The position numbers and the translations under genes were made by a program. A stretch of 64,000 nt of DNA, taken from Takakia lepidozioides. Its lineage: Eukaryota; Plantae; Bryophyta. The stretch lies in the NCBI GenBank assembly GCA_030704615.1, contig CM060732.1, forward strand, positions 77,438,001-77,502,000. Reading direction: 5' to 3'. Shown one piece after another: positions 3,801 through 41,089 of this stretch. The notes below the pieces were generated by a model. The model saw only the letters and a program-made list of their open reading frames with translations. It did no database searches and had not been told where the DNA came from. How positions within the stretch are numbered: position 1 is the first letter of the stretch; every line of letters starts with the position of its first letter.

Positions 3801-5516
3801 TGATCTTCAGGTTTGTTCTCTATCCAGTCATCCCTGTTTCATCCACACATATTTTGGGGCATTAGAACTGTATTGCACGTTTAAGCCGAAATTGATCTGT
3901 TGTGCTTAGGCAGCAAATGTATAATTGGAATATACCTTGCTGTTTGGCGGTCTGCCAAAGTGTTGGTGGTGTTTCTCCTAATTGTGGAATGTTTTGCCCA
4001 CAGATCTTTCTCAGTACAAGGTGGACAATACTATTGAACTTACAGGCTGAAATGTTCCGCGTGAATGGGTATCCTTTTTGGCTCTTGTTTGGATTCCCTG
4101 AACCATGTAATACTGTGAAGATGGAGATGTAAGGTCAAGTTTTCATAAATGACAACAGCAGAACATATGAAGCATCCAATATGAGTGTATCGAATCACCT
4201 TCTACATTGTGAGAAAGAGAAATATGAGGGTAGATTCATTCATTTGTGGGAGAAATGAAATGAAGTGATACTTTGTAATTTTCACGGCAAGTCAAAGAGC
4301 TTATGGGACAAGAGATAGCATTAAACAAGAAGAGAGTTGGGGCTGCAACAAGCAGCCCAAAAACAACTACTGATTAAGGGCTTGTCTCAGAGTCAACGCC
4401 CCGCGTGGATATGCTGGCAAGCATTTCAGGTCCTCGTAATGGAAGGCCTCTGTGAGAGCTTAGAATAGACAATAGTATCTCCACCTAGAAAGGACAGTGA
4501 AAGAAGGAATGTTCTTCATTTTTCTCCTCCTGTTGTCCTTAGCACATGGGGGGCGCAGGTGCTCCTCACGCCGGAGGTTGTCCCAGTCTCTATCTGCAGG
4601 CTGTGGGAGCCTATAGAGGAAAACAAAAGATGCCTTTTCACGTCAAGTAGGACAACAACAGAACCACATGACAAGACTTCAACGGACAGTTGTGGCCATA
4701 GACCCCGCGCCCAGTTTGGGCAGGGACAAAAGGGACCAGAAACTACCTTTGTGTGGGGCTCACTCTGGTAGTGTGACTTGGTATGAACATTTAGTTCGGG
4801 ATTTCCAGATATCCTCTAGAAAGCCGTTCACACAAGCATCAATCTGCTGTGTGTGAGCACCCCATACCTCAACTGGGCCAGGGCCTTAGGCTCGACGTCA
4901 AGATTTTGAAAGTTGGTGAACAGAGGTGCCGTGACAATGTTCTTGATTCTCCTGAAGAGGATCACTCTCAGGTGAGAACATCCCTGGACAATGTATCAGA
5001 AAATGGATATTGTCTTCTGGTTTGCCCGCACATTGGGCACTTACAATCTCCTCTTCCTCTCAGATCTGCTTATTGTTCAAAGGTAGGCTTCCCACCCTGA
5101 GTTTAATTTCAGTCTAGTGCCACGGGCAGGTATGCCCTTGAGATCATCCTCAAGTTCCTTGCCCATGTCATATACTGGAAAGTTCAGGGAAGTTTTATGC
5201 CTAACTTCATGAGGAGAGAGAGAAATGAAATGAAATGAAATGGAGAGAGAGAGAGAGAGATTGTACTCATAAGACGTTGTTTGCCGTAGCCTTGTGGCCA
5301 TTGACCCCGCGCCCAGTTTGAGTGGGAACAAAGGGACAGAACCTACCTCTGTCAGGGGCTGACGTTGGTAGTGTGACTTACCATCATATATAGAATTAAT
5401 CCGGGTTTTCCAGATATCCTCTAGAAATCCCTTCACACAAGCATCAATCTGCTGTGTGTGATTTGCCCAAAAACTAGGCCTCAGGAGGGCCTGGGCTTTT
5501 GGCTCAGCCTCGAGAC

Positions 5517-20458: not shown

Positions 20459-21361
20459 AGTAATTTATACAAACAACAGCTTGCATGAATTCCATGCATT
20501 TAATGTTGAAGCTTCATATCCCACCGCTACAATTGGTGTTTTTTTAAATTAAAATAATAATAATAATAGAGGAAGCCCTTTGGAGCTTTATTAAAATTAT
20601 TGAAGGGAAAAAAATTAAAACCCTTGTAGCCCGAAAGGCCGCCTTAAGGCCCAAACACAGGGGGAGCCGTGACGGATAACTCGGAGAATGATAACGTCTG
20701 ATCAATGAGAAACAAAGAATGCGAACATTCTAGAAGCGGGTTGGAACCGGAGCCCAAGGAACTGGCCTTCCATGGGGAGAGGTAAACAATGAACAGCCTA
20801 AGAGGCTACAGAGAGTGTGGACTGTGAATGTGGAAGTGTGTGCCTAACAAAAGAGAATGACAGCGGGGAGAAGACTACAATCTGGGCACTCTATATCTAT
20901 GGTAGCAGAGTCTAGTCTTGGTAAGAGATTTTGACATGTGTCCAGTTAACCCTTAAAGGACGAGCTAACTTTTGGTGGGCCCACTAAAAAAAGTGTATAT
21001 ACACTTATGGATGGGGGTGTAACTTCTTACCCCCAATCATCCAGGGGGGTGAACCTTACACTTATGTGCATATCTACTATGTACACGTCCTGTAAAAAAT
21101 GTAGGCAAATTGACCATTGCATTTGGGAGATTATAACAAAATAATATGCCCCAATTTGTAAATGTATTCAAAAATTACATGAATGGTTTCACCATAAAAT
21201 TACAGTCTCGAGTTGAATCATCCTAGACAAAGGCCCTCCATAATCTGATTATATGGCACCTAAATCACTGCCTCCCACAAAAATCAGACCAAAACTCCAA
21301 AAATTCAAATAGGCTACTTTGTATGTGAAATCTGGGGGGTCAAATTGTCTTGTTTTGGCTT

Positions 21362-21891
21362 TGTCGTGCGCACACATATCGCTACACAACTACATCGCTG
21401 TCCAAACCACGCCACACATATATGCACAATAAAGTAGTCTGCCACAATGATAAACAAGCTAAAAGGGCACACACTCTCAACACAAGAAATATGAAATCCA
21501 TCGCTATCACTCTTTAAAATAGAAGTCGAGCCAGGGGCACCCCAAGCTATGGGGACTCCACCCCACAACAACCTACACTCCCATCATAAGCACACTCAGA
21601 TCTAAACGCATGAAGGAGCTCGGTCGCGCAGGCTCAACTCGAGAGAGCTGAGCTGCGCGACTGACGCTCTCGTGAAGATAAGGTAGTTCAGGTGTCAAGC
21701 TCAAACTTAACACCTGACTTAACACTTGAACTAAATCCAAGTGTTAAATACAAATAACTAGTTTTATTCTAGTTAGTTTCACACTGTGCTTATTTAACTT
21801 GACAGCTGTCGTGCGCATACATATCGCTACACAACTACATCGTTGTCCAAACCACACCACACATATATGCACAATAAAGTAGTCTGCCACA
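21362..21891 (-). repeat. 3' terminal repeat block Y-gc-X-t-Y of the DNMT retroelement
   Basis: Y copies 21362-21446 and 21807-21891 differ at 3 of 85 positions. X at 21448-21804 differs from 39898-40254 at 3 of 357 positions. Palindromic junction GACAGCTGTC at 21801-21810. Confidence 0.92.
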
Positions 21892-22151
21892 ATCGCCCCC
21901 CTAGCTGGTGGATAGGTCCCTCTACCTCCAGATAGCTACAAGATGTAATAGCCACAGCCGTCCTAAGTCCCCTATCACTGTCCCTATTGTACTCAAATTC
22001 TATAGACCAAGAGGCCGGGTACAAGAGTAGCCCCATCGTTAGTCGCCGTCTTGCAATCTGTGAACTTGAGCCAGGACCTCGTGTGTTCAAGGTCACCTAG
22101 TAGCTGGGCCTTGCGTTTCTTGTTAGTCTTCCATGGTTGTATCCACTCCCA

Positions 22152-23550
22152 CTATCCAATGCAATGTGGACATAACCAATCCCCATCCGGAACCATCTCA
22201 AGAGGTGGTGTCAAGCATCCCATATGCCAACCTCTAGAGCATCGATCACACACCAGCATGGTGGCTGCCCCTCTAGCAGACCCACACAACATGCACCTCA
22301 AACCTGCAGATATCACTGCCAGGTTTGGGTCAATCCTGCCATCGACATTCGGAAGGTGACATGGCGCACAATTACGCACATGGTCCTTCCAAGTTATGCC
22401 ATCCCGACCCTCCAAGACCAAGACGCCTGAGGGCAAGACCTCTCGAACCCTCAAAATAACACGTCCTGCAGTCACATCCAGGGTCGTAGGAGCAGTCTGC
22501 TGCAGATAGACATAGTCACCAGGGTTGAATCTCCGAACCCCAGGACGATAGCCCCCACCACGTATGGTAGCATACCTCAACGTATCATGGTGTTGTGCAA
22601 TGGCAAGGTTTTCGAAAGCCATGGGCATGACTTTCTTGAACAACTCTGCACGCTGCTCACATGCACGTGCCCACACGTCCGGATTGTCAAGGTTAAGAAC
22701 TGCAGCAGCTTCTCTGCGAATGGATGTAGGCAAATCCGGCTCTCGGCCAAAGAGAAGAAAGTATGGTGAGAAGGAGGCAAGTGATGCTTGCCTTATCAGG
22801 CAATGGAACCAACTCAATCCACTTGGAGAAGTGCTCCACCATCACCAACACGTACTTGTTGTGGCGCATGGTCAGTGGCAACGGCCCTATAAAGTCAAGA
22901 CTCCACCTGTAGCCCAATCCCATGATCGGAAGAGGGTGCAATTGTGGAGTAGGGGCGTTGAATGAAGCACGCACCCTGTCACACACCATGTACCTAGCCA
23001 CAAATTGTTGCACCTCTGTGTGCATACCACGCCACCAATACTGCCCCTGCAGTAGACTATGAGTGCGTCGCACCCCAAAATGCCCCAACTCCTCATGGGT
23101 ATGCCGCACTAACCGTGCCCGCTGTGTTGGGTGAGGCACAATCCTCACTCGACCATCCTCCCACACTCGGAGCAAGTGTGTCCCCTCCCACCTGAACCTC
23201 TTGGCTCGTTGTAGGATCCGATCCCTCTCCTTGGCAGTCACAGTGGCTGCCGTGTCTCCAGTGCGGAGGTAGTCCAACACAACTAAATCCTCATGTATAT
23301 CTTTGGCGCCACCTTGCTCATTGCTGGCCTTAGGGTCCTCAGACACTTGATCCACAGTCATCCCTGTTGCAGGTCCAACCTGGCCTTCCGCTGCCAAGAT
23401 ACATAGAAATGCAGATGCATGCCATCCGGGCACCATCTCCTCGTCCGTCTCACCATGCCACCGAGCTCCAGTGTCATCCTGTTGGCTCGTGCATGGATTG
23501 CGACTCAACCCATCTGCATTGCGATTGACCAAACCCGGTCGATGCACCAC
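22152..23550 (-). pseudogene. Integrase with deleted catalytic core and C-terminal PHD finger
   Basis: HHCC-like region (HEELGHFG...YMVCDR) and WSLDF...VMVEHFSKW, then a jump at about 22790 to SPYFLLFGREP in another frame. Ends in a C4HC3 PHD, CMLC...CDRC..GWHMGC...WLCPHC (about 22161-22295). Confidence 0.9.
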
Positions 23551-23565
23551 CTGAAAGTCATACTC

Positions 23566-24831
23566 TCAAAGGATGAATGCCCACCGTGCAAGCTTCCCCG
23601 TAAGCTTGTCTGACTCCATCAACCACTTGAGTGGTTGGTGATCCGTGACAAGGGTGAAGAGATTGCCGTATAGATAGCACCTGAAGTGTGCCACGGCCCA
23701 CACTGCAGCTAAGCATTCTCCCTCATATGAGCTATACTTAGATTCTGCAGCGTTGTTCGAGCGGCTAGCATAAGCCACTACGAACTCTCTTCCCTCATCA
23801 TCCACCTGTGTGAGCACCGCTCCAAGCCCCAGCATGCTCCAATCTGTATGCAGCTGAAAAGGACGCCCCCTGATAGGTCGTCTCAAGATGGGCGCCGAGG
23901 TCAACCTCGCCTTGAGCTCTTGAAAAGCTTGTTCTTGCTCATCTTCACACTGCCACTCCTGGTCCACCTTGGTCAGCTTGGTTAGAGCCTTTGCAATGGC
24001 ACTGAATCCCTTAACAAACCGTCTATAATAGTTTACTAACCCCATGAAATCTCGAACTCGGCTCACATCTGTGGGGCGTGGAACCTGTGCAATGGACTCT
24101 ACCTTAGTTTGCTGTACCCCCAATCCTCCAGGATATATCATGTGACCCAGATACTCAATCTGGTTGTGGAAAAACTTGCACTTTCCCGGATGTAACTTCA
24201 ATCCGTGCGCCCTCAAGCGCTCAATTACCCCCTGAAGGTGTCTCTCATGCTCCTCCACCGTAGCACTAAAGATGATGATGTCATCTATGTAGCACCGAGC
24301 AAACTCCACCCCTGCTAGAATCCTGTCCATGACTCTTTGAAACTCAGCGGGAGAGTTTTTAAGCCCAAATGGTAAGAACCGCCACTGGTATAGGCAATCC
24401 TTCCCGTGCTTATTGATCCCCCAGAATGTCGTCTTTTGCTTATCCGCCTCCTTAATCGGCAACTGGTGATATCCGGATCGTAAATCCAACGTGCTAAAGA
24501 CCTTGGAATGCCCAATGGCATCAAAGATCTCCTCTGGTGTCGGCATGGCATACCTATCGGACTTGGTCTGACGATTTACAGGCCGGTAATCACCGCACAT
24601 ACGTCTCTCCGTCCAATTGCCATAGACATCCTTCTTAGCTGGCATCACTGTGGCTGAAGCATACTCTCCACCAGAGAGCTCCACCAAACCTGCCTCCCAG
24701 AGATCTTGAGTCCTCATCTGAATCAAAGACCTCTCCATGTCACTGTATCTATAGGGTCTCCGAAAGATTGGCGTGTCAGTAGCCAATTCAATGCGAATCT
24801 CTTGACCCTTCAGTGCTCCCAAGTCCTTCAA
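23566..24831 (-). pseudogene. Ty3-type reverse transcriptase and RNase H
   Basis: [37 protein letters not shown]; RNase H motifs HTDWS, YEGECLA, VTDH. In frame with the DNMT segment across a stop at 24991. Confidence 0.95.
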
Positions 24832-25289
24832 ACTGAAGGCAAAGCAATTCCTGTAAGCCCTCAGGAACCGCCGTATACGTCGTCTCTCTCCTCCGGTGAC
24901 AATGGGTCCAATGTCAAGCTCCCAATTGTCCTCCGTAACTGCAACCTTAAGTCCAGTGGGCTTAGAGGTAGAGGACGCGTCCCGTGGTTGCTATGCTGCA
25001 ACCTCTTGAGCAGTACTCCCTTCTTGCTCTGTCAATGACAAGGCCTCATCCTGCCCCATCATGTCATCATTGAGAACCTCCTCAACCCGAGAAGAATCCC
25101 CAACCGCATCTATCACAGCTGCCTTGGCTGCCAACTCCTTATGAGCCTCGAGCACCTCCCACGTGTGCCATGGATGCGGCCTGCACCTTGTGGTCATCAC
25201 CTGCTCGCCCCCACTCGCTGCCTGTACCATCTCGGTAGGCAGAGAGACCGTGAAGGGGAGTGTACTGCGTACTCTGCGCTGCTCAGCCA

Positions 25290-26250
25290 TAGCCAAGCTG
25301 ATAATCCAAGTCAAGCAATTGAGATCCATTGCTTGCCCCAACACCTGACGACGTGATGCCTCAAAAAGAGAAGGCACCGCCGTGGTCCCAGTGGAAAACC
25401 CCATAGCCCGCTCTCGCTCGTCGGCATTAGGCTCCACTAACTGTTGCAACAGAGCATCCCACAGGAGGCCAGGTCCACCATCCCGAAAAGCATGGGATCC
25501 TGGGAAGCTGAGCAGTGTAGGTAATGCTGCTCGTGGTTGACCCACCCTGTTGACCACTGCCAAAGGCGAACGGTCATCGTGTCTCACACGTTGAGACTGC
25601 CTCCCTGTGTCCAAAATGCCATCCACAGTGAGATGTGCTAGCCGCTGCACCCCATCAAATGCACGCTTGAAAAATGCGGGTGGCATCAAGTTAGTCCACC
25701 AAAGCCGTGGACGATGAGCCCGTGACCCCACTGCAGCTGCATCCAACAACACTGCTGACCCAAGCCACGACCGGACTTGATGCACACTGGCCATCACCCT
25801 GGCCCGAGAATCATCCATCAGTGGCACATTCTCTAAGATGTATGCTGGAGATACAGCTTGATGAAGCTGCAAGTAGCGCAAAATCCGCACCATCTCCCAA
25901 AACAGACCCGTCCTCGAGTCTCGCAATCCATTTCCATGCCCGGCTGATGAATGCCCTTGGCAGGGCCAACCTGCCACTACCAGATTAATGGAACCAACCT
26001 GCTCCAAATCCTGCGCCCCCAGCAAAGAAATGTCTGCTGGCAAGGCTTGTTGGTATCCACGAACTGCAGACACTGGCAACAAAGCAGGGTACTGCTGTAC
26101 CAACTGAGCAACATGGCGTAGTGAGACGCTCGTGCAGTCTCATCCCTCTCCACATACAGGTAACGCCTTACCCGCACACCTGCCTGTAGCACAGCAGCCA
26201 ATCCGGTGCTGATCCCTCCAAACAAGTCCAGAAGGCAAATGCCTTCATCC
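25290..26250 (-). pseudogene. DNMT3-like C5-cytosine methyltransferase domain between protease and RT; one frameshift near 26130
   Basis: Motifs in canonical order: I LLDLFGGIS, II YLYVE, IV GWPCQG, VI LENV, VIII AHRPRLWWTNL, IX ERERAMGF, X RRQVLGQAMDL. Confidence 0.92.
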
Positions 26251-26599: not shown

Positions 26600-27000
26600 A
26601 TGTCACATGGAGCTGTGCACGACGACCATCCCCTGACTGCCAGCCAGGCCTGTAGGATGCTGACTCCTCCCAAAAGTCCAGGGTGAAGCCCATGGGGTAT
26701 AACACTGCCCCACCAACGAGGACATCGTGAGAGACCGCGTCTGTCACAATGGCCTTGGCTCGCATCACTGAGCCATCTCTAGGATGATCCGGCTGCAGTC
26801 TAATGGCCAATTGATGCCGTGTCATGCCCCGAGCCTGCTCTGATCCTCCCAGAGATGTCTGTATCTGGAAAGGACAAGGCTCCATATCCGCCTCCATGAG
26901 GCCCAAACCTGCAATAGCAGCTCTGCCCAACATCAGTGGCTGAGCTCCCGAGTCCAACAAGACCCGTAGTGGCCGGTACTTCTTGCCTGCCGGTCCACTC
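26600..27000 (-). pseudogene. Aspartic protease domain of the DNMT retroelement
   Basis: VLLDSGAQ catalytic motif and DVLVGGAVL C-terminal motif in ORF 25977..27704. Confidence 0.85.
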
Positions 27001-27728
27001 AAAGTAAAAATGCCTCTCTGGTTGTCTAACAAGACAACTCCAGGTGTCACCATGGCGCGCTCAAAGGCTGGCCTAGCTGGCAGCTCCGTCAACCTGGCAG
27101 CTGCAGCTTGCCATGGCGCAGCCGTGGCAGTCTTGACCCTCACATCCGAGGATCCCTCTGCCACTACACCTTCCAGTAACTCCGCAGAAGATGAAGTGAC
27201 CTCCCCACTCTCACAGAGTGTTGCTGCTAGTCTGAACACTGCAACTGGTCTTACCCCCGGCGTCGCAATCATGGTTGCCAAGAACAGTGGGGCTTGACAC
27301 ACAGAGGTGGCTGCCCCCAACAACACACCGGCTGCACTAGCCTTGGCAGCAGGTGTCAGTGCTGCACGTGTAGCTCTCCCCAATGGCATAGAAACCTCCG
27401 CCTCGGTAACAGTCGGGCGAGAACTAGGTGCCATGGATGGCGTTGACACTGTCTCCGCCAAGGTGAATGATTGAGGCAGCCTCGCCTGACGGCTTGCCTC
27501 CCCACGTTGTGGATCCAACTCCACCTCTGCACCTCGTGGCTCAGGAACTCGTGCTGCTCCTCGAGTCACGGCTGCAGCAGACTCCACCTGCTCTTGTGGT
27601 AGTGCTGCTCCGCAAATGAATCCCATGCCTCCCATATCTCCTCCCTCAGGAACAGGAGGTGGACCATCCCGCCTGGGAGCCAGTACCGCCTGAGCTGTAG
27701 CCATGGCAGCGAGCCTCTGCTCTAGCTG

Positions 27729-29195
27729 CTAAAGCCGGTTGGCCATGCCTTGGTCAACACCCTGACCTCCGCGTCCTTGGCCATGTTGAGCTTGCCCTTG
27801 GCCTGCACCTCGTGCCCGACCACCTCGTCCTCTCTGGGCTGGTCCACCTTGCCCTCGGCCACCATTGTTCCCTTGGAACTGGCCTGGGCGCAACTCAGGA
27901 TGCAAGTCATAACACTGGGCATCTCCATGCCCATGCTTGCCACAATGCCCACACTGCAACTGTGCAGGCTGTACTTGTGCCGACCTTTTGCCACTCTCTG
28001 GGCAATCTCTTTTGACATGGGGTCCTCCACATGTCCAACATATCACCCCTCGTTGTTGTTGGCCTGCAAAAGATGCCACGGGCCTCTGCACCCGAGGTCC
28101 CCTGTAAGCTCCATGGAACTTGGGCTGGGCAACCTTGCCCCCCTGACCACGCTGTTGGGCAAGACCTTGTGCCTGTGGGCTGGCAGCTGCGCCTCGTGCA
28201 AGCATGTCCTTGCCAAACCCAATGGTAACAACTCGCTCCTCCACCATGTTGAGCTCAATCCGCTCAGCCAGCAGAAACACATCTGCTAATGTGGGTTGGG
28301 CTGCTTGTAACAGGGTTGCATCCCGTACCCTTCTCTTGAGCTCCTTGTCTAGAATTCCATACCAAAACTGGATTGCCTGAGCTTCAGTAACCCCTTGGGT
28401 CACACTTATCAAGCGCCTCATACGAGTGTACGCCTCTCGCAGGCTCTCACTGGGTTTGCGCTGGAAGTCTTGCAAACTTCGCAGCTTCTCTATCCGTACA
28501 CCTTGGTAGTTCCTCCGCAACTCCTGGAAGAACTCCACCACCGGGTTGAATCTAGGCACATGTGTTGTAGTCGTGGCAGGAAGAGTAGTAGCACCTTTTG
28601 AAGTGGTACCACCTGCAGAAGTACCGGCACTACTTGTTCCACTACTAGTGCTGGTAGTGGGAGATATTGGTACTGATGCAGCTACTGGTCGCGTCGTGCC
28701 TCGAGTAATGGAGACGTAGTCATGTGACCAATACATCCTCCACTCCTCAATCTCTGCTTCATGTCATCGCCTGAATTCGTGGTAATCGTCCATAGGCGGA
28801 CCTTCCAAATGCTGGAACAGTCCCTTCCACGCCATGAATGGGGTGAATATCTGTGGATTGCGCATCTGCTGCAAATCACACCAGCTGTCGAACTCCTGGA
28901 TAAAGTCATCCAACTCGATTGTGCCCACAGCTCCAGAGTACCTACGAGGCCCCTTGGTAGCTCCATACATCTCTTCCATGTCGTCCCACAACAATGGCGA
29001 ATGAAACTGCACACCTGTTGATGAAGCCTCCGAGTCTGTGTCTGACTCTGCACTAGTTGAGGGTGGAGGTGAAGGTGGTCTGAAACGAACACCTCGTCTG
29101 GTGAACCCACTCTCACTGCTACTACCTGTAGCCGTACTCCCCTCAGAACCCATGGGTAACTCCGTGATGACACTCACAATGTGTACCTCCCCCAC
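27729..29195 (-). pseudogene. Gag of the DNMT retroelement
   Basis: Retrotransposon Gag-like helical region (LDDFIQEFDSWCDL..., FQRKPSESLREAYTRMRRL) and two CCHC knuckles (CWTCGGPHVKRDC, CGHCGKHGHGDAQC). In-frame stops at 28764 and 27729. Confidence 0.85.
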
Positions 29196-29715
29196 GTGAC
29201 ACTATAAGGCTCTATTACTAATTCTAATAGTGACACGGGTAGACACCTGTTGCAGTTTAAGGGTCATATCCCAGTGGCTCAGGGCACTTGCACCTGCATC
29301 CACCGCAAGAACTCCTATGGTTGGCTGGTCATCAACCTAGTCTCACCATAGAAGAAACACTGGTGGTCTTACTGGTCATCACTCCAGCCTCACCACCGAC
29401 AGCATACTCTAGGATTGACCGGTGATCAAATCCGGCCTAATCCCTATGAAAGCAAGCGCCCACACAAAAACAACATGGCGCACAGTCAAGCATGCAGGTA
29501 TTGGGGGGGATCCAAACACAAGAAATCAAAACATCAACACCCCCACACCAAAATCCAGCAGCAACGCTGATCCTGCAGAATATCCCAGCCCAAAACCCCA
29601 GACTGACTGGCCTCCACCAAGAGAGGCTTTGACAACTACAAGTACAAGGTAATGAAAATAGTACAGAGATGGAGGGGAAGAATAGAAGCCCGACCAAGCA
29701 AGATCTAATCCTGAT

Positions 29716-30464
29716 CTATGCTATCAACTGCCAGACTTCTCTCAAAGTGCCTCGCTCTGCATGATGGTAAGGTGTAGAAGGTATATCTATGTCCAGAAAC
29801 CTGCCACTAACCTTGTCCCAAGCTACAATAGCTCGCTCTAACCAACCCTTCTCCTCTTTCTGCCAAGTAGAGACAAAGCAATACTCCCCTATCTCCCGCT
29901 CACTAAACACTAAAGAAAACAAAGGTAGGGTCTGATAGTCTCTCAACTCAAAAGCTTTGAGACGGTTGCGGGTGTCATCATTGCGAATGATTGCATCTCC
30001 TTCAAACAGAACAAACTTGTCCTCGCTAATGAACCCCCGCTCGTGGTTGCCTTGTGCAGAGCGTGTCCGGCTACAACGCTGTCTGATTGCACAAACTTGT
30101 GTAGCTCCTGCTCCTCTACTCCAATACACCACAACCTTGTGGCTGAACACTTGGTCCCTGGGGCTGTCTTTGGCTGTGTTCCAAGCCTAGCTTTCACCCA
30201 CTTTGGTATTTCACCTACAGCTGCAGAACTGCTGGCTCCAACAGAGTTCTGGCTGTCCAAAGCAATATTGAGGCCCTCAACGCCAACTACAACAGTTTGT
30301 TGTCCACTGCTAATGCCTGACTCCCAGTATGCAATCAACTCGTCCAACTGTTCTCCACTCAAATCAGTCTGAGTTCCTTGGGAAACATAAATCCTGTCCC
30401 CTTGTGTGCACAGGCTAAGAGAAGAGACCTGCCCTTCAATTACGTCCTCATTTCCCCCAGCCAT
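29716..30464 (-). pseudogene. Extra sense-strand ORF upstream of Gag, probably one ~250-aa protein broken by a frameshift; unknown function
   Basis: Overlapping minus-strand ORFs 29943..30464 and 29716..30150 with globular-looking sequence; no family recognised. Confidence 0.4.
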
Positions 30465-32627
30465 ACAAGGAGTACATCCACAGATTTGTCTCTCATATAG
30501 ACCAGCACAGGTTCAAGAAACAGGATTGTGGATCTTTCATGGCACACTCACACTCTAAAAATTCCATAGATTTCTAGCAGAGTCCAAAAAAAAACTAAAA
30601 CCAGATAGGTAGATTTCCCCTTTCTGCAGCTATCCCCGCAAAAACTGTACCAAACGGAGCTCATATGACAAAGATATGACCAATTAGGCTCTAAATCATT
30701 CGAATTAGATCAAAAAGTTTTTTTTTTTTTTTTTTTTTTTTTAACACCAAAACGTTCTCGCAGGTTCCCGATTTTCCATCTGAACAGCCCGTCTCGAGTT
30801 CTCTACACATGGGCGGGTCTTGGGGAATTACGATGAATACAGTGGCACGCTGAAGCTCAGCAGCAGGTAGACAATGTGTCCGTTAATGTAAAGAGCCTGG
30901 CAGATCGACAGTTTGAAACGATCAATGCTTCATCTCCTGTTATGCCATTCGCATCAGCCTGCCGTAGACTGTCTGTCAGCCAATATCCGAGTTCAATCGT
31001 GCAAGCAGAAATCTACCAGAAATCTATCAACCGGCTACTGATTCCATAAATACTGGCAACTCCCATTCCGGATCTGTACTCAATGGATCAGTATAGAGTG
31101 GCTGCCCTTAGGGCGCGCATCATCCCAACCAGGGTAATCTGCACTGAAGCCGAGATGACACTTGAAGCGGCTGCTTCCACAATGCTCCCTCTTTGGTGCA
31201 TTCATCGTGCTAATCTAGCACTGCCCAAACCACGCCACAACTCTCGTTGGTGCAGGAAGTATGGCTGCCGCATTGCAGGTCTCGGGTCAGGCTCTCCATA
31301 GCCTAGGCGTGCAAATTGCTGCTGATATTGGGGCTGCCTTCAAATTGACTGCCAATAGGCCCGAACCTGTTTCATTAAAACCGAGACTGTCGAATTTCCG
31401 TCCAAAAAATGCTAGTGGGTATTTGCCATGACAACACCTGACAATGTATGAAAGCCCACCATAAAATCCGAATATCTTCAATCAGAAGTTGGAATTCGTA
31501 ATGGCCTCCATTCTGGTCTGTTTCATCGCCCCTTTGGCCTGCTTCATGATCAGCTCCTATGCTTGTTGGACAGCACCTTAATTACGCACTTGCTAGAAAA
31601 TCTAGCCTGACCCCGTCCATCCATTTGCTTGCTTCCTCGCGATGTGCAGCCAGACAACCTCACATCAACCAGCCCACAACCACTCCTTCATGGTGGCTGG
31701 GCTATAGTCGCACACCGACTTCCCACCCATTGCTAGTAACCACCAGTGACTCTGATGTGAGTTGGCTGACCAGCTCTACAACGTTCAATGCTAGGACGAA
31801 TGGTAAGTCCCCGCAAGTATAATCACAGGTTTCGGGGTCTTTAAACTTCAGGCCCGGATTGTTGTCTTAGGCCTCATTCATCAACCTCCGTGCACCATAT
31901 ACATCTTGGTCTGCCTTATAACACCAGCCGCAATGACTATATCTTATTTTTGTGCACTGCTGACCACCACCAAAATGTGCAACTGAAAGCAGACCGTAAC
32001 ATATGTTGCCATTTTGGCTGGCCGTGGTGGCCGCTCAAGACGTGATCTTAGTCAACATGGTTGAACCGCAACAAGTTCATCTATTTATGTTGTGGTTCAC
32101 TGAAGATCTGGACATCTGCAGATCTGAAGTTCCACTACATCTCTTCGTTTCTTTTCTTTGTCTTCTTTGCTACCACATCTCCACTAGATTGATCATGAAC
32201 TCACATCTAGGAGCGTCATATGAGGTTGCACATTAACAATACGCTTCTGTTGGTCCCATCAACATCCAGGCAAATGCAAACAGCTCATCGCACTTAGGTA
32301 GTGGTCACAACAACAATGGAACTACCTGCATGATGGTATTCTCATATTTGCGGCTGAAGATGAAGGTCACGGGCAACACCTTTAACGCGCTCCTCACATA
32401 CTAGCTTGTAGCTGGATAACAACAGAGATATAGCTGATAGGCTTATCGAGCCTCACCACCAGCCACTCTGAAAACTGCTCAAATGCTCCACAACACAAAT
32501 CCGTGCACAGCTTATGGGAGCCGTGTATGCATCCTTCTCATGCGCAACCTCAGCTTTCAAACCACGTGAGAGTCCACGATTCCCATTTCCGCTAGACACC
32601 ACCCCAATCGATGCCCAACGCATAGGA

Positions 32628-35600
32628 TGTCGCGCACCTCACTTCGGTAAGCTCCCCTTCAAGTCATAGTTACTCGCTTTGATGCGCGCGCCTGACTCCC
32701 AACCTGGCCGCCCGGGCCAACTTGGAGCTTCGGCTGCTCACCGGGACATAACGGTCCCCCCCTTTGCTCCCGCCTAAACCCTCCACCTAATTGGGACTAG
32801 GAGAATTCCCTTTGGTAGATGGCAGTCCGGAACAGCTCCCCACTCTTTGGTCGCTTTCCGGCTCGCTCGCTGGCTCACTAGTTTTTGGTCACCAACGGGC
32901 TTGCACCGTTCTCGGGGTTACTACTCCCTATATATACTTCTGTAGCTGTCCGCGGGGGTTCCACAACCAGCCATGCCATTTTATGGCGAACCACCACGAA
33001 AACCCTCGACTCCCGGTGATGAGTCGCGGTGAGTCTTGGCCCGCTCACCACGGCCCCTATGGACCGTGATGAGTCCCAAGACTCCCCACGACTCCCACCA
33101 CGAGGTCTCCGCCCCCATAGTGAGTCCTATGCCACCCCCACTAAGTCCCGCTAAGCTACCACCACCCCTTGTGGAGCCACCCCCACCGCAACCCGGTGTG
33201 CGGGGCTCCACCTAGTGAGCGCCTCCGCCTCCTTGAGTGCCTTGGGCACTCAAGGGTGCTTCAGCCTCCCCCATACCTATCGCTGCCGCTGCCCCCACCA
33301 CAGGGGCAGCCCCTCATGTGTCCCGACCCCCTGCCCTCAAGGCAAAGGGCCGCGACACACACCCCTACCACAGGGAGTCGATGTCCTCATCGACTTGTCC
33401 ATTTTGTAGAAACGAACATCCAAGTTGTGGCGTCCCACATCAAGGAGTTTGTTTCTGTACCATGGCGTCCCATGGCAAAGAACCAAACCCCACACTTGAC
33501 TCTACTCTCCACTAGCTAGTTCGGCCGACTTCCTCTAAGTCCCGGCCAAGGGTGGAGCCTCTCCAGCTCCTCCCAGTGCACTCTTCTTGGCCTACTTCAA
33601 GGCCAAGGAACGATCCTCCCCGAGGATCGAATCGCCTTACTGCAACAACATTGCTTGCGATCACTCATGATGCCGCTTTTGGCATAACCTTGAGCAAGGG
33701 TTCACCTAGAACCCTCTTTGACTAGGAAGATAACCTTGAACCAACCGTGCGCCCCAATCACTACAATTGGGTCCGCCTTGGAATGCTGGCCTGAGGTACG
33801 GGAACACGCCGAAGCCGCACTACGACTTCGTCCCGAGGCTACACGATTATAGTACGTGAACGGAAGCACGTAGCTTCCGCGTTAGCCCGCACTACAAGGC
33901 AACCCCCTCGGTAGCGCAGTTATAGTACGCGCACGCGCCAGGTGCGCACTACGTGAACTCCCAAAGAAGTCGCAAGTTTCCTTGCCCCTTGGATGGGGGT
34001 CACCCGATTTCGGCACTACGCAAACACACGATTAACCCAATTTACCTCTCCCACTTTTATAAGCTAGCATGCATTCTACACACTAGCCAACCATACCATG
34101 CATCACCATTCCAAACAAAATAGGACGCACAACATTTGGAACCCATTTCCTTTATAACAAATTTTTGTACAATACAAGTTTTTGTAATCGGATTCCTAAG
34201 CTAGCTAAACCGGGCTAAGCATGCATTTCCTCCCCCACGCTCCAAGGTTGATGTCCCCATCAATGTTTCTTCTGCTTTTGAGGTCGCCCTTCGAAAGCTG
34301 CAACCGCTTCGGATGCGTTTCCCATTTCTGAGGCACGCACCCAAGATGCCTCCACATGATGATAGCCCTTCCATTTGACGAGATACTCCGTTTCTCGGTT
34401 TTTGAAGCTCCTCGACTTAAGTATTGCCTCCACCTCGTACTCAGGTTCATTTTCATGATCCAACAGCATAGGTGGCGGACGCAACACTTGATGTCGATTC
34501 GGACGCGCTTCATCTTTGAAGTAAGGCTTCAAAAGGGAGACATGGAATACTAGGTACACCTTGCTGTTTGCCGGCAGCTCCAATTCATACACATCCTTAT
34601 TCATAACCTTCTGAATGCGAAAGGGTCCCGCATACGGAGGTACGAACTTTGGACTCACTTCCGGAGGTAGTCGGAAATTCTTGATGTTCAACCAGACCTC
34701 TGTGCCTGCCTCAAACTTCACTTCCCTCCACTTCCGATTCGCCTGCCTTTCATACCGTTTCCTAGCTTTGGCAATGTTGTACTTTACGAGCTTCAACAAA
34801 CGCCCGCGTTCTTCCAGTATCGCCGCTACTGCCGGTTCCTCAACGTCCTGGGCGGCCCAACTTGTCGGCACCAGAGGTGCTTTTCCATAGACCAATACGA
34901 AAGGGGAAACTCCTGTTGCGGAGTGTTCTGTGTTATTATAACAGAACTCTGCCGCGTCTAAGTGTTCCATCCAGTCTGATTGGTCTGCCGACACGTAATT
35001 CCGCAAGAATTGCTTCACTATGGAATTCACTCTTTCCGTTTGGCCGTCCATCGTAGGTCGGAAGGCGGTGCTCATCTTCAGCCTCGTCCCCATCTTCTTC
35101 CAAAGTGTCCTCCAAAATTTACTCGTAAACTTTGGATCGCGATCCGAGACAATATCCTTCGGGACTCCATGATGCTTTAAGACGTGGGCGAAGTAAAGTC
35201 GCCCTGTCTCCTACGCCGTTGCCGTCTCCTTGGTAGGGATGAAATGGCCCATTTTACTGAACCTATCCACCACCACCATGATTGCATCGAATCCTTTTGA
35301 CAGCGGCATAGCAGTCATGAAATCCATCGAGACGCTTTCCCAAGTCCCCTCTGGAATCGGCAAGGGTTGTAACAGCCCCGCTTGCTTTTTGTACTCGCTC
35401 CGGTTTTGTTGGCATGTGGTGCATGTCTTGACATACTCCTCTGCCTCCTCCCTCAATTTGGGCTAGAAATACTCTTTCTTCAAGAGTGCCGCAGTGCGCT
35501 TGGCTCCGCCGTGGCCCGCAAGCGGGCTATCATGGCATTCTCTCAAGAGGCTATCCCTGATCCCTCCCTTCGGCACGTAGAGGCGCTTTTGCTTATACCG

Positions 35601-38600
35601 GAGCAGTCCATTTTACAAGTGGAACTGCGATTTAACCCCCGTCCTCAAGTCCTGCATCACGTACTTCGCCAGCTCATCCTTCCGGCAAGCCTTCCGGATC
35701 TTCCTTTGGAGCGCCGTCTCGCCCTTGTACACCAACAAGAGCTGCTGCTTTCTACTTAAAGCATCGGCCACCACGTTGTCTCTTCCCGGTTTGTACTGGA
35801 TATCCACGTCGAACACCGCCAAAGTATCTTGCCACCTAAGTTGTTTTGGGGACAACTTGGGCTGCGTGGCAAAATACTTCACCGTGACATTGTCCGTGAA
35901 CACCTTCACTGGGTTGGAACCAACATAGTGGCGCCAAAGCTCAAGACAGTGCACCACCGCCTTCATCTCTTTTTCGTGCATTGGCCACCGTCGCTCCACT
36001 TCATTCAGTTTCTTACTTTCGTAAGCCACTGGACGTCCATCTTGCATCAGTACACCCCCAATCGCGAAGTCCGACGCATCTGTATGTATCTCGAATGGAC
36101 GATCGAACTCCGGGATTTTCAAGACTGGAGCTTCCGCCATCTGCTGCTTCAATTCAGCAAAAGCTTGGCCACAAAAGGTGTTCCATGCCCAGAAGGTCTG
36201 ACAACGGCCCCACGATCTTGGCGAAATTTCTCACATACTTCCGGTAATAGGAGGCGAGTCCAAGGAAGGATCGCACTCCCGGGACCGAAGTCGGAGGCTC
36301 CCAGTCCAAGATCGCCCTCACCTTTCTGTCATCCATTTTGATCCCATCCTGTGTAATCACATGCCCCAAGAACTCCACTTTCGTGACCCCGAATTCGCAC
36401 TTTGAAGCTTTGGCGTACAGCTTCCCTTCTCGCAATTTCTGGAACACCCTTTTGAGGTGCTCCAGGTGCTCCTCCTTTGTTTTCGAATACACCAAGATGT
36501 CGTCGATGTACACGATCACAAAGTCATCCAACCACTCCTGGAAAAGGCTGTTCATCAGCGTGCTAAATGTCGCTGGTGCATTGGTGAGCCCAAAAGGCAT
36601 CACCAAGAACTCATATGAACCATACCTTGTCCTGCACGCGGTCTTCTCCTCATCTCCTTCCGCCACCCGAATTTGGTGGTAGCCGGAGCGCAAGTCGATC
36701 CGGCTAAAATACTTCGCTCTTGCCAACCGATCGAAGAGGTCGTCGATCATTGGCAAAGGGTACCGGTTTTTGATAGTCACCTTATTCAGAGCCCTGTAAT
36801 CGACACACATCCGCAGCGTCCCATCTTTCTTGTCTGCAAATAGCACCGGGGCTCCGTAAGGTGACTTACTCGGCCGGATGTACCCCTTTGACATTAGATC
36901 CTTGAGCTGAGTCTTCAGCTCGACCAACTCTCTGTGGCTCAACCGGTAGGGCGCCTTGGCAGGTGGTTCCGATCCCAGTATCACCTCAATCTTGTGGTCA
37001 ACTCCTCTTCGCGGTGGCAAGCCGCTTGGTAAATCCTCCGGCATCACATCCTGGTATTTCTCCAAAATCCCTTGATCCAATCTGGGCTCGGCTCCCCATC
37101 GCCTTCTCCTTTCACTTCTCTAATGTAAAGCAAAAACTGGGGCTCGTGTACCTCCTCCACGGCCCACTCCTTTGCTGACAGAAGGTTTATTCGCCCTCCC
37201 ACGGATTTGGGCGTTTCTGTCACTCGTAAAACCTCGCCACCATTCCAACATGGCAGCGTAACTACTCTCTTGCGGCCATCTATGACTACTCCGGATTTGC
37301 TCAAAAAGGTCATCCCCAAAATGAGATCCACTCCATCGATCTCGCAGATGGTGAAGTTCTCACGTCCCTCCCAACTCCCCAGTTGAAGAGGAACATCAAT
37401 CGCCAACCTTGTCACCAACTGTGGTTCTCCTTTGGCAGAACGCACCTCAATAGAGGCCCCCACGTCACTTGTCGGGAGTCCCAGCTTTTGTGCCGTTGCC
37501 GGTGTCATGAAGGAGTGCGACGCTCCTGTGTCCACCAACAACGACACATTAGTTCCGGATATTATCCCATCCACGAACAATAACTGACTCCCTTTTCGTA
37601 AGGCGCCAGTTTCCTGATACAACTCACAAGAAAAATTGCCTACCTTGCAAGTCCTGGCGACCACCGCTTCCACCAAGCGACTGATGGTATCTTCCGACAG
37701 CTCCGTGGTCGCCCGAGTCATGTTCAATTGCCGGGGCTTCGTGCACTTCTTGGCCATGTGCCCGGGCTCCCCGCAATTGAAACACACTCCATCAAAGGTC
37801 GTCTTCTGTCCGCCATAAGCCACTCCACCCGCTTTTCCTTTCGAAGCTCCGGGTGCCGCCTTGACGTGTGAAGGCCCTCCCTTCGATTTCCACGTGCCAT
37901 TTTCGCCGCGTGGCCTATCCCACTTCTTTTCCGGTCGGAAGGAGTCACCTTCCCGCCGAATCTTCTTGTGGTTCAGCTCCGTACGGCCTTGTCTTTCACC
38001 CCTAGGGACATCCGAGAAACATTCAGCCCTCTCAATTGCCTCGTTCAAAGTCTTGGGTGGCTTCTCCTCCAACTTCCGCCTGGCCCATGGGGCCAGTCCC
38101 GCCACAAAGTTGAAGACCATTTCTGGTTCTGCCATGTCCGCGACTTCGAGTAACAGCACATTGAAAGCCTGGACATACCCCCGAATGTCATCTGTTTGCT
38201 TCAAATTCCTCATCTTGTCTCGGGCAAGCCAGGACGCGTTGAGGGGCACAAACTGTCTCTTCATCAATTCCTTGAACCCACTCCAGTTCAAGGTTTCCGG
38301 GCTTGGACCTCGGTCGTGAAGGCGTTTCTGCCACCATTGTTGAGCATAGCCCCTCAAATAGGTGGGAGCCACTTCCACCCGATCCTCGTCACTCAACTTG
38401 GCCGCCCGGAAGTACTGCTCTAGCTCCAGGAGCCAGGTGTTGAGTGCCTTCCGATTTCGGACGCCCTCGAAGGTGCCGGGTTCTTTAGGCTTCACCTTAA
38501 ACTTTGCCTTAGTGGAAGTGGCATTAGCCGCCTCAACACGTCTTTTAACGTCCCGCCAAACTACGCCAACAACCCTTCCCAAAAGGCAGCCGGCATGGGA

Positions 38601-39588
38601 GGCATCTCTTGGTTTGTCGGAGCTCTCAAGGATTCCTTGGGCTCCGACTCCTCGGATTCCTCCCGCTCTTGAGCGGCCTCGTTTTCGGAAACATGCATCG
38701 CTTCCTCAAACGGCCGCCTCGGTGACACGTCGCCCCCATCGGGCTCACCGGGATCATCATCTTTTGGGCCGTTCCGCTTTCGCTTCGGCTTGCCCGACCC
38801 CATGATGAGGCCAATCCCAAGGACGATCGCGTACTGAACTCTAAGCTCTGATACCAAGTGTCGCGCACCTCACTTCGGTAAGCTCCCCTTCAAGTCATAG
38901 TTACTCGCTTTGATGCGCGCGCCTGACTCCCAACCTGGCCGCCCGGGCCAACTTGGAGCTTCGGCTGCTCACCGAGACATAACAGTCCCCCCCTTCGCTC
39001 CCCTCTAAACCCTCCACCTAATTGGGACTAGGAGAATTCCCTTTGGTAGATGGCAGTCCGGAACAGCTCCCCACTCTTTGGTCGCTTTCCGGCTCGCTCG
39101 CTGGCTCACTAGTTTTTGGTCACCAACGGGCTTGCACCGTTCTCGGGGTTACTACTCCCTATATATATTTCTGTAGCTGTCCGCGGGGGTTCCACAACCA
39201 GCCATGCCATTTTATGGCGAACCACCACGAAAACCCTCGACTCCCGGTGATGAGTCGTGGTGAGTCTTGGCCCGCTCACCACGGCCCCTATGGACCGTGA
39301 TGAGTCCCAAGACTCCCCACGACTCCCACCACGAGGTCTCCACCCCCATGGTGAGTCCTATGCCACCCCCACTAAGTCCCGCTAAGCTACCACCACCCCT
39401 TGTGGAGCCACCCCCACCGCAACCCGTTGTGCGGGGCTCCACCTAGTGAGCGCCTCCGCCTCCTTGAGTGCCTTGGGCACTCAAGGGTGCTTCAGCCTCC
39501 CCCATACCTATCGCTGCCGCTGCCCCCACCACAGGGGCAGCCCCTCATGTGTCCCGACCCCCTGCCCTCAAGGCAAAGGGCCGCGACA
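32628..39588 (-). mobile_element. Nested Ty3/gypsy chromovirus, full length, mildly decayed
   Basis: 730-bp LTRs at 32628-33357 and 38859-39588 (TGTCGCG...CGCGACA, about 10 differences). 5-bp TSD TAGGA at 32623-32627 and 39589-39593. tRNA-iMet PBS TGGTATCAGAGC at 38845-38856. Confidence 0.96.
34260..38857 (-). pseudogene. Chromovirus gag-pol: Gag(CCHC)-PR-RT-RH-INT-chromodomain, with frameshifts and stops
   Basis: CFNCGEPGHMAKKC, LLVDTGASH, YIDD, HTDASD, DGQTERVN, GPF motif, and chromodomain YEVEAIL...YLVKWKGY...SW. Breaks near 38570, 37060, 36190, 35613 and 35211. Confidence 0.93.
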
Positions 39589-39897
39589 TAGGAGCCCACC
39601 GTGCAATATCCATGTCCAGGCCACAGACTCTCTTGCCTCCATGGATTTGCTTGTGTTGGGTGTTTGAGACAAGCGGCGGCCACACCACACTGTGTGGGAA
39701 GCTCTACAACGAGTGCGGTGTTGAAGCCTTGGACAACGGAACCATTGAACTTGAACTAAGAAATGAGCTTACGCATACACACACTGCTGTACGAATCTAC
39801 AGACTCATATAATACTTGCAAGCTATATTATAATAGTGCTAAAACAAACATCCTATCTAGCTTAGCACTACAAACCTAGATAGGCATCTCTCTCGAG

Positions 39898-40254
39898 TGA
39901 TAAACAAGCTAAAAGGGCACACACTCTCAACACAAGAAATATGAAATCCATCGCTATCACTCTTTAAAATAGAAGTCGAGCCAGGGGCACCCCAAGCTAT
40001 GGGGACTCCACCCCACAACAACCTACACTCCCATCATAAGCACACTCAGATCTAAACGCATGAAGGAGCTCAGTCGCGCAGGCTCAACTCGAGAGAGCTG
40101 AGCTGCGCGACTGACGCTCTCGTGAAGATAAGGTAGTTCAGGTGTCAAGCTCAAACTTGACACTTGACTTAACACTTGAACTAAATCCAAGTGTTAAATA
40201 CAAATAACTAGTTTTATTCTAGTTAGTTTCACACTGTGCTTATTTAACTTGACA
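39898..40254 (-). repeat. 5' terminal repeat X of the DNMT retroelement
   Basis: 357-bp direct repeat of 21448-21804 (TGATAAAC...TTGACA on plus), followed by the TSD GCTT. Confidence 0.92.
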
Positions 40255-41089
40255 GCTTCTTTCACGATTACACCCATGAGATGATATTTGTTTTCCAATT
40301 CCTCTGGTAAGTAAGTGCTCAATAACATTTCATAGTGCCATGTCCAAATTTTTTGGGCTTATGATAAATTTTCAGCCCTAGATGTTACTTTGAAGATTGC
40401 CCATTTGGTTGCCACGTAGGTAGGTCAATGGTGCTCTAACACTGGATTTTCCGACCCCTCGGCACTTTGAAAAACTCTAGGGAGCAGAGCCTTTATGATT
40501 TTTTTGGCGCTGTAAATTCCCACACGTGCTCCTCTCTGACATCCACAATTTATCTTCAGGGTTCACTTCCATCCACTATCATCCACTATCAAACTGGAGC
40601 GTGGGAAAAAACTGACGCGACCCGATTCGGGTCACGTCGTCCTTTAGGGGTTAATGTCTGATTTGTCGAAATTCCAGGGATGTCGAAGAGGAGGGATATG
40701 TGGTGTTGCCATTGTAGTGGGATTTTCCCATGCCATACACGGGACTCAGCTGCATATGATGCCTTGCCGTCCCCATGAGGATCTGAAAGCGTTGAGGAGG
40801 AAATGCTGACATTTTAGAGTCTCTCAAGGTCTGCATGTAGCTTTGCCCAAGCCAGTTTAGTCGCAAATGGTAAGATCAAAGAAAACTCTAGTGAGCAGTA
40901 CTGTAGCCGTGGAGTTAGTATTGTCTAGCGTTCAACTGCAGCGCGCTTTCCACATGCCCTCGAAGCTTTGGATTTTGACCTTTGGTCGTAATTTAGGAGC
41001 AAGGCGACCGATTGGGCTGGGAAATGATCCCAAGTTCTGTATGGAGACTAGAAAATAAATAAATAAATAAATATAGACACCTCCCGAAG

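Follow-up and report, generated by a model that had tools for sequence, protein, structure and literature searches.

A Gypsy-like retrotransposon of Takakia lepidozioides with a DNMT3-class methyltransferase domain, split terminal repeats and a conserved stop codon ahead of the reverse transcriptase

In Klebsormidium nitens, KnitGypsy-Dnmt3 joins a set of Gypsy domains to repeats of the DIRS type (de Mendoza et al. 2018, PMC5890265). As described in that paper, K. nitens is the sole green-plant case and the acquisition is placed in its lineage; its DNMT domain was inactive in yeast, a result that the authors call inconclusive, and the DNMT3 domains of SymbioDIRS and dinoflagellate retroelements methylate CG de novo in yeast. 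Two further sources, in the parts accessible to us, cite elements of the KnitGypsy-Dnmt3 kind as ‘streptophytes’ (PMC12344493; bioRxiv 10.64898/2026.05.21.726589). The second of these, a preprint on EpiLTRs, sets the latter apart from ‘streptophyte Gypsy-DNMT3’.

The window analysed here is a 64,000-nt stretch of the Takakia lepidozioides genome (GCA_030704615.1, contig CM060732.1, positions 77,438,001 to 77,502,000). It contains an element that runs on the minus strand from 40254 to 21362 and comprises, in this order, repeat A1, a nested chromovirus, gag, protease, DNMT, reverse transcriptase-RNase H (RT-RH), integrase (IN), a PHD finger, a G tract and the repeats B1-A2-B2. The features are as follows (TSD, target site duplication).

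40255–40258, no strand: 4-bp TSD on the 5′ side; identical 4-mer on both flanks, with a 5-bp test failing
39898–40254, minus: repeat A1, the 5′ element end, starting TGTCA; 99.2% identical to A2
40087–40097, minus: complement of the primer-binding site located inside A1, 11 nt long; putative transcript start and self-primer
39888–39898, minus: primer-binding site directly following A1; unlike a tRNA site, it is the complement of the 11 nt within A1
32628–39588, minus: nested chromovirus without DNMT, used as internal control; 730-bp LTRs 98.6% identical, 5-bp TSD, chromodomain
27732–29153, minus: gag, with a capsid-like part and two zinc-knuckle-like motifs; start codon predicted; interrupted by a stop at 28764–28766
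26700–27050, minus: aspartic protease, LLDSGA at 26943–26960; 55% identical to Marchantia P0003
25282–26264, minus: DNMT3-class C5 cytosine methyltransferase; frame broken once, at 26129/26130; PC and ENV of the catalytic site preserved
24985–24993, minus: conserved in-frame stop TAG (24991–24993), then CAA CCA, a CARYYA context
23569–24984, minus: reverse transcriptase and RNase H, YIDD at 24280–24291; Pfam RVT_1 8.5e-33, RT_RNaseH 1.1e-33
22332–23205, minus: DDE integrase made up of an HHCC zinc finger, a core (deletion at 22790) and a C-terminal part; Pfam Integrase_H2C2, rve
22155–22307, minus: C-terminal PHD finger; Pfam PHD 4.4e-11
21894–21902, minus: G-rich polypurine tract directly before B1; also in L080, L098, L111, L125, L126 and L130
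21807–21893, minus: repeat B1, ending CGACA; 96.6% identical to B2
21805–21806, no strand: 2-nt spacer of the internal CA-NN-TG junction B1/A2
21448–21804, minus: repeat A2
21362–21448, minus: repeat B2, the 3′ element end, ending CGACA
21358–21361, no strand: 4-bp TSD on the 3′ side, matching the 5′ 4-mer

The PR-RT-RH-IN order, the DDE integrase, the TG..CA ends and a TSD within 4–6 bp are those of Ty3/Gypsy elements (Metaviridae), except that a full LTR at each end is replaced by a split A-coding-B-A-B arrangement. Split direct repeats are shared with SymbioDIRS-Dnmt3 and other elements of the DIRS order, and in SymbioDIRS a DNMT3 also occurs together with an RT; however, the DIRS order has a tyrosine recombinase instead of the DDE integrase, protease, TG..CA ends and 4-bp TSD found here. 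The integrase end carries a PHD finger, also present in many relatives, and not the chromodomain of a chromovirus. In the proteins P0018 and P0034 the region equivalent to the protease matches Pfam gag-asp_proteas. EpiLTRs resemble the Takakia element as LTR elements with a DNMT and a chromatin reader, and one group of them occurs in Cymbomonas, but as described in the preprint their DNMT is sister to DNMT4 and is accompanied by DAM and a chromodomain, a combination that the Takakia element does not have (bioRxiv 10.64898/2026.05.21.726589). With KnitGypsy-Dnmt3, by contrast, it shares an unpermuted DNMT3-related domain within a Gypsy polyprotein, the A-coding-B-A-B layout and the Gypsy domain set, and by this published description, as distinct from Klebsormidium sequence, it is probably an element of the same kind (PMC5890265). 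The differences are its land-plant host, relatives that span streptophytes and chlorophytes and, apparently, the position of the DNMT, which the paper assigns to the Pol ORF; in Takakia the DNMT is in frame with RT, but a conserved stop cuts Gag-PR-DNMT from RT-RH-IN-PHD. The text of PMC5890265 available to us does not mention PHD, readthrough or target sites, apart from a TSD for a LINE element, and none of the matches listed in our searches was a Klebsormidium-named protein. Within the open-access literature, we found no report of land-plant or chlorophyte copies, nor of the stop, the termini or the priming. The kind of element is known, and what is new are its host range, the two-ORF layout defined by the stop and the resolved termini. 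The initial annotation of this locus, made from the letters of the window, had likewise not covered the conserved stop, the split repeats with their 4-bp TSD, the PHD finger or the relatives in chlorophytes.

The Takakia copy is complete but dead. The initial annotation had given a frameshift near 26130 as the only break; this holds inside the DNMT, but elsewhere the copy has three stops (28764–28766, 27729–27731 and 23566–23568) and a deletion in the integrase core at 22790, which makes the core about 294 nt shorter than in the X9 contig from a second organism. Differences number 3 in 360 positions between A1 and A2, 3 in 87 between B1 and B2, and 10 in 730 between the LTRs of the nested chromovirus. 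These few differences indicate that both the element and the nested insertion are recent, in keeping with the recent activity proposed from the sequence alone. The nested chromovirus has Gag, protease, RT, RNase H, integrase, SH3-like and chromodomain parts and a primer site that we take to be tRNA-Met-like; it is far less CpG-depleted than the DNMT element around it. The region between A1 and gag (29202–32627 plus 39589–39887, about 3.7 kb) is longer than in relatives and has no match in related loci; it includes a poly(T) run near 30716–30742 and two ORFs without Pfam hits, and may hold a further insertion.

The land-plant setting was likewise borne out by the surroundings, which are of bryophyte type and probably those of a moss. 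A plant cation/H+ antiporter (CHX) exon at 52197–53465 on the plus strand contains an ORF (52197–53462) that is closest to bryophyte proteins (264 bits for Ceratodon, 242 for Physcomitrium and 206 for Marchantia), with only 40% identity to the best moss match, from Ceratodon. At 57338–57377 lies a 40-bp fragment that is 92.5% like 27691–27730 but inverted relative to it, a remnant of a further family member. Short dispersed repeats occur in both orientations (4250–5515, 8088–8239, 49027–51662, 57475–58071 and 60385–60568); they belong to several families, some with terminal ATTTC runs, and are possibly MITE- or SINE-like.

Six C5-MTase motifs had been named in the DNMT, and all are present between the protease LLDSGA and the RT YIDD (minus strand: LFGGIS, 26208–26225; GWPCQ, 25957–25971; ENVP, 25822–25833; AHRPRLWW, 25696–25719; ERAMGF, 25396–25413; LGQAM, 25327–25341). 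Their order is unpermuted, as had been stated, and lacks the circular permutation of DRM; the catalytic PC and ENV are intact in the Takakia copy as well. The Pfam DNA_methylase search suggested at the time matched ORF 24991–26139 with E=6.8e-12, above the curated cut-off. Motif I lies in the protease frame and the remaining motifs in another, with the switch at 26129/26130. Sibling contigs from three of the four sequencing runs have one extra base at this site (48 contigs in X1, three in X5, the single X9 contig from the second organism and none in X7; contig numbers do not equal copy number). Thus, the Takakia copy has lost one base there.

By sequence profile as well as by fold, the domain is nearer to DNMT3 than to DRM, DNMT2 or bacterial enzymes, which upholds the likeness originally seen in the wording of its motifs. 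The single sequence retrieved DNMT3B and DNMT3A as top matches in the PDB (E ~4e-5), and a profile of 21 relatives matched DNMT3A at E=2.2e-23. The strongest match outside DNMT3 was chain 4onj at 4.3e-10; HaeIII scored 7.5e-9 and DRM2 1.8e-6. A predicted model of the 278 residues after the frameshift (mean pLDDT 86.6) had DNMT3C, 3A and 3B as best Foldseek matches, with TM values of 0.63–0.67. All 17 alignment rows, at identities of 34–68%, retain the catalytic C, E-N and R-x-R without change. We take R836 of DNMT3A to be a CpG contact residue; its position is apparently F, Y or H in the retro-DNMT (alignment by eye), which makes the target context of the enzyme unsure. The DNMT is probably catalytically active in active copies of the element.

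Among the matches listed, named DNMT relatives came from Calypogeia fissa (73% identity), Marchantia polymorpha (up to 72%), two Sphagnum species, Haematococcus, Closterium, Cymbomonas and Monoraphidium; Hariotina also has a relative. In a library clustered at 50% identity, 205 clusters passed 1e-30. Viral contigs yielded 57 loci with short matches of at most 51%, which resemble ordinary viral C5-MTases, and no retroelement relative. The DNMT occupies one of two places, either before RT or, in four chlorophytes, between RNase H and integrase, both often with a C-terminal PHD finger. A quick unrooted DNMT tree, calculated without the Sphagnum proteins, separates these placements with an SH-aLRT support of 97: the four chlorophytes are split from a set made up of Closterium, the two liverworts and the Takakia copy. 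A clade with a support of 98 unites the stop-bearing forms and also takes in the Marchantia model P0005, whose tail is missing. A quick RT tree has the same main split at 90 and a stop clade at 96 that also contains the fused P0080. The simplest reading of these sequences would be one old capture followed by a later relocation; two captures, or horizontal spread, possibly lie behind both placements, the trees being unrooted. The chlorophyte relatives argue against an acquisition confined to Klebsormidium.

Several of the relatives deserve mention on their own. Full-length Gag-protease-DNMT ORFs of Marchantia polymorpha are annotated as hypothetical host genes (P0003, P0438, P0439, P0445 and P0446); the loci of the lineage are Mp_4g09160, Mp_5g06330, Mp_5g06860, Mp_Vg00370 and Mp_Vg00540, and, judged from the locus names, two of the five ORFs are on the V sex chromosome. 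Open RT-RH-DNMT-IN(-PHD) frames, as in the named chlorophyte proteins, were found at L087:419-4492, L097:749-5215 and L123:7751-12058. In precomputed Pfam annotations of the RH-DNMT-IN relatives P0074, P0357, P0370 and P0368, three contain PF01585 and one a chromodomain (PF00385). Most loci from L088 to L137 form a more distant family with about 38% DNMT identity, in which DNMT and RT are fused without a stop; split repeats, 4-bp TSDs and the self-priming signature occur there too, along with heavy C-to-T decay. An assignment of the L058 family to Sphagnum was rejected, as its identity to Sphagnum models (68–71%) is about the same as to Marchantia.

A dN/dS test had been proposed along with the initial annotation. 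Nei-Gojobori values for the DNMT of the Takakia copy versus L058, L059, L061 and L067 were 0.09–0.10 at a dS of 2.2–2.5, which is near saturation; the other 10 pairs with the Takakia copy were saturated in dS and unusable. For L081 versus L082 the ratio was 0.12 at a dS of 0.29, and within the decayed L058 family it was 0.50–0.70. The DNMT is under purifying selection, with a dN/dS of about 0.1, as reported for KnitGypsy-Dnmt3 (Ka/Ks < 0.2; PMC5890265). A second footprint concerns CpG sites. Of the third codon positions with C or T before G, C was present in 31 of 202 (15%) in the Takakia element versus 85 of 181 (47%) in the nested chromovirus (p=1e-11), and before H the share of C was 52% versus 60% (p=0.03). 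Stop-free ORF parts of L082 had C before G in 26 of 208 cases, and L058 and L087 were only mildly depleted (C3G1 o/e 0.63 and 0.73); the flanks in the window are CpG-depleted, too (o/e 0.37–0.43). The silent-CpG depletion shows long exposure to CG methylation; it indicates neither depositor nor timing, and long targeting by the host can explain it equally well.

Protease, DNMT and RT had been described as lying in one ancestral frame. The DNMT is indeed in register with the RT, which follows in the same open frame, but the DNMT tail ends at the in-frame TAG 24991–24993, which is conserved in the family and splits the two. In the 241 bp from 24880 to 25120, four runs yielded 31 variant rows at a share of at least 5%, and none of them at 24985–24995 (1896 records were aligned in run X1). 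An RT comes after the DNMT at 64 loci, of which 24, counting the Takakia copy, reach a DNMT identity of 45% or more. A stop followed by CARYY is present in 19 of these, five with the full CARYYA (the Takakia copy, L081, L082, L085 and L101) and 14 with CAACCC, and is missing in the remaining five. None of the 40 more distant loci has this combination, though 25 have some stop in the stretch. Codon two past the stop varies between families (CCA, TTA, TCA, CCC, for Pro, Leu or Ser) and yet keeps two pyrimidines, which points to a signal at the nucleotide level. At the protein level, 39 of the matches listed contain the whole DNMT at an identity of 47% or more; 30 of them end 55–190 aa past the DNMT, seven run into RT/RH/IN and two stop sooner. 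Most of the seven are gene models, considered here as predicted proteins, but P0041 is a metagenome ORF; the labels of P0038, P0042 and the other ‘_S’ proteins were set by the protein end point, not by DNA. Several Marchantia ORFs of 1278–1281 aa terminate at the same place after the DNMT. The stop is not required across the group, since DNMT and RT are fused without it in the L088 family and others.

In MuLV, gag-pol is made by stop readthrough. A stop would likewise control how much structural product the Takakia element makes relative to enzymatic product, but the MuLV stop follows Gag, whereas that of the Takakia element follows protease and DNMT. The context, UAG and then CAR YYA, is of the TMV type, a readthrough consensus described as working at all stops (PMC7026636), with 6–10% readthrough in stable Arabidopsis lines (PMC2754532). 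Based on this context, the UAG after the DNMT is probably read through in active copies. Gag-protease-DNMT would then be the major product and RT-RH-IN-PHD the readthrough minority and, if the stop is leaky, the DNMT would likely be among the most abundant proteins of the element. Another in-frame TAG at the gag end (27729–27731, minus strand) is also followed by a CARYYA hexamer (TAG CAG CTA). It was rejected as a second readthrough site: 13 matched loci have Glu (one of them Lys) there, and with a sense codon in the relatives this TAG is probably a point mutation.

No tRNA-like primer site follows A1. Instead, the 11 nt at the A1 end are the exact complement of positions 158–168 of repeat A; in a random control, none of 2000 internal 34-mers matched as well. 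Five of nine copies have an exact complement of at least 10 nt and the other four one of 6–9 nt; when six copies were rescored with mismatches, 13–14 of 15 nt paired in A1 or A2. The paired sequence differs among three families. A predicted fold joins both stretches (z=-3.59, from a fold start picked for its complementarity). Neumann et al. (2019, PMC6317226) describe self-priming by a complement of at least 10 nt between the 5′ repeat and the site after it; the Takakia element comes close to this criterion, with a slightly different start window in our script. Such complementarity is known from the Tf1/sushi and Tcn1 chromoviruses, from which the Takakia element differs by its PHD finger in place of a chromodomain, its DNMT and its split repeats; its RT is only 40% identical to that of the nested chromovirus. 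For minus-strand priming, the 5′ end of the transcript would fold back as in Tf1, and on the complementarity described we regard self-priming by the element as likely.

Among the loci of at least 6 kb in a set of 80 metagenome loci, the full A-coding-B-A-B layout was found in L080, L092, L098, L111, L125, L126 (L131 being alike) and L130, and in part in L058. Full-length copies end in TGTCA..CGACA or decayed versions thereof. Seven of eight have an exact 4-bp TSD, in L130 only three of the four bases match, and none passed a 5-bp test. At the B1/A2 junction the copies have CA-NN-TG or a decayed version, and the spacer measures 2 nt in nine of nine junctions. Troyka elements, described as limited to animals and having CG..CG ends and a 3-bp TSD (PMC12440569), are excluded by the TG..CA ends and the 4-bp TSD.

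All eight full-length copies are arranged A-coding-B-A-B and none A-B-A-coding-B, a uniformity that a simple 2-LTR circle cut at either junction fails to explain. Two CA-3′ ends with 2-nt overhangs are the usual processed substrate of integrase. A staggered cut at CA-NN-TG by the DDE integrase would yield two such ends together with the permuted layout; plus-strand priming would take place at the G tract, and B+NN+A would act as a single ordinary LTR. The insert would accordingly resemble a two-LTR molecule opened inside its first LTR. Foamy virus integrase also cleaves 2-LTR circle junctions, and the internal cut likewise gives processed ends, but it restores the normal LTR order, whereas the site in the Takakia element lies inside the LTR equivalent and the insert is permuted (PMC1180852). 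Split repeats, a DDE integrase and a 4-bp TSD in one element point to an integration route between those of LTR and DIRS elements, and standard two-LTR finders likely miss elements with such repeats.

What the methyltransferase does for the element can be approached from its place in the polyprotein. With a leaky UAG, Gag-protease-DNMT would be the main protein of active copies and the enzyme would be packed into the particle, where the new cDNA would likely receive its CG methylation ahead of insertion; readthrough would add a minority of full polyprotein including RT-RH-IN-PHD, and the PHD finger would read chromatin at the target. On balance, we lean slightly towards this chain of leaky stop, packaged DNMT and cDNA methylation before insertion, and give cDNA a marginal preference as the main substrate. 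Methylation of its own cDNA, put forward in the initial annotation, would have indirect support from the CpG depletion and from the predicted stoichiometry of the products. Less likely, an active and selected DNMT acts on genomic DNA instead, be it integrated copies, rival elements or host target chromatin. Purifying selection and the PHD finger fit that reading equally, the CpG depletion is silent on when methylation occurs, and both an influence on the methylome of the host and a benefit to the host are brought up by de Mendoza et al. (PMC5890265); however, fusion behind Gag-protease and before the stop would put the enzyme in the particle, and its location between RNase H and integrase in chlorophytes is a particle location as well. 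The domain might instead serve without catalysis or be directed at RNA, for instance as a structural particle component that binds the RNA or the cDNA. Such a role would suit the predicted Gag-level abundance and the inactivity of the Klebsormidium domain in yeast. We find it quite improbable, given catalytic C, ENV and RxR residues that are invariant over 34–68% identity and the de novo CG methylation by related dinoflagellate retro-DNMT3 (PMC5890265).

The readthrough step itself has a competitor in a pol translated from a spliced RNA, from an RNA with a start of its own, or after re-initiation, the CAR-YY context being incidental. An ATG lies two codons past the stop in the 14 CAACCC loci, which are all of one family, and in Marchantia the gene models P0005, P0009 and P0012 run from DNMT into RT, with P0005 lacking the roughly 78-aa tail as an intron would cause. 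Such joins may be artefacts of gene prediction, though; the frame is open and in register across the stop with YY kept over three amino acids, and in the Takakia copy no Met occurs for 84 codons, the first one of the RT frame being 85 codons past the stop, which disfavours re-initiation there. We therefore consider a separate route to pol improbable, and readthrough the better account. That the Takakia copy recently and neutrally captured a host DNMT3 exon, or that the nesting is due to chance, has hardly any probability left. The frameshift inside its DNMT would fit, but the domain has the same position in liverwort, peat moss and Closterium relatives, has no introns, shows a dN/dS of about 0.1, and yields a tree with the same main split as the RT. 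The initial annotation had named absence from siblings or a neutral recent capture as what would speak against it; siblings and relatives carry the DNMT under purifying selection, which rules out both.

As one joint claim, these elements would form an unnamed Gypsy-like lineage that spans the green plants and is as old as the chlorophyte-streptophyte split, with a single DNMT3 capture and two Pol positions, self-priming, permuted ‘LTRs’ arising by a staggered CA-NN-TG cut of circular cDNA and, in bryophytes, UAG readthrough with Gag-level DNMT and copies that arrive CG-methylated; in its entirety this picture is tentative and rather doubtful. Until now, the only green example of a retrotransposon-borne DNMT was an alga whose domain was without activity in yeast (PMC5890265). 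The stop after the DNMT predicts the amount and the place of the enzyme and, as Marchantia polymorpha is a genetic model with full-length ORFs, the role of the retro-DNMT is directly testable. Furthermore, bryophyte DNMT inventories and methylome work may contain unrecognised transposon enzymes.
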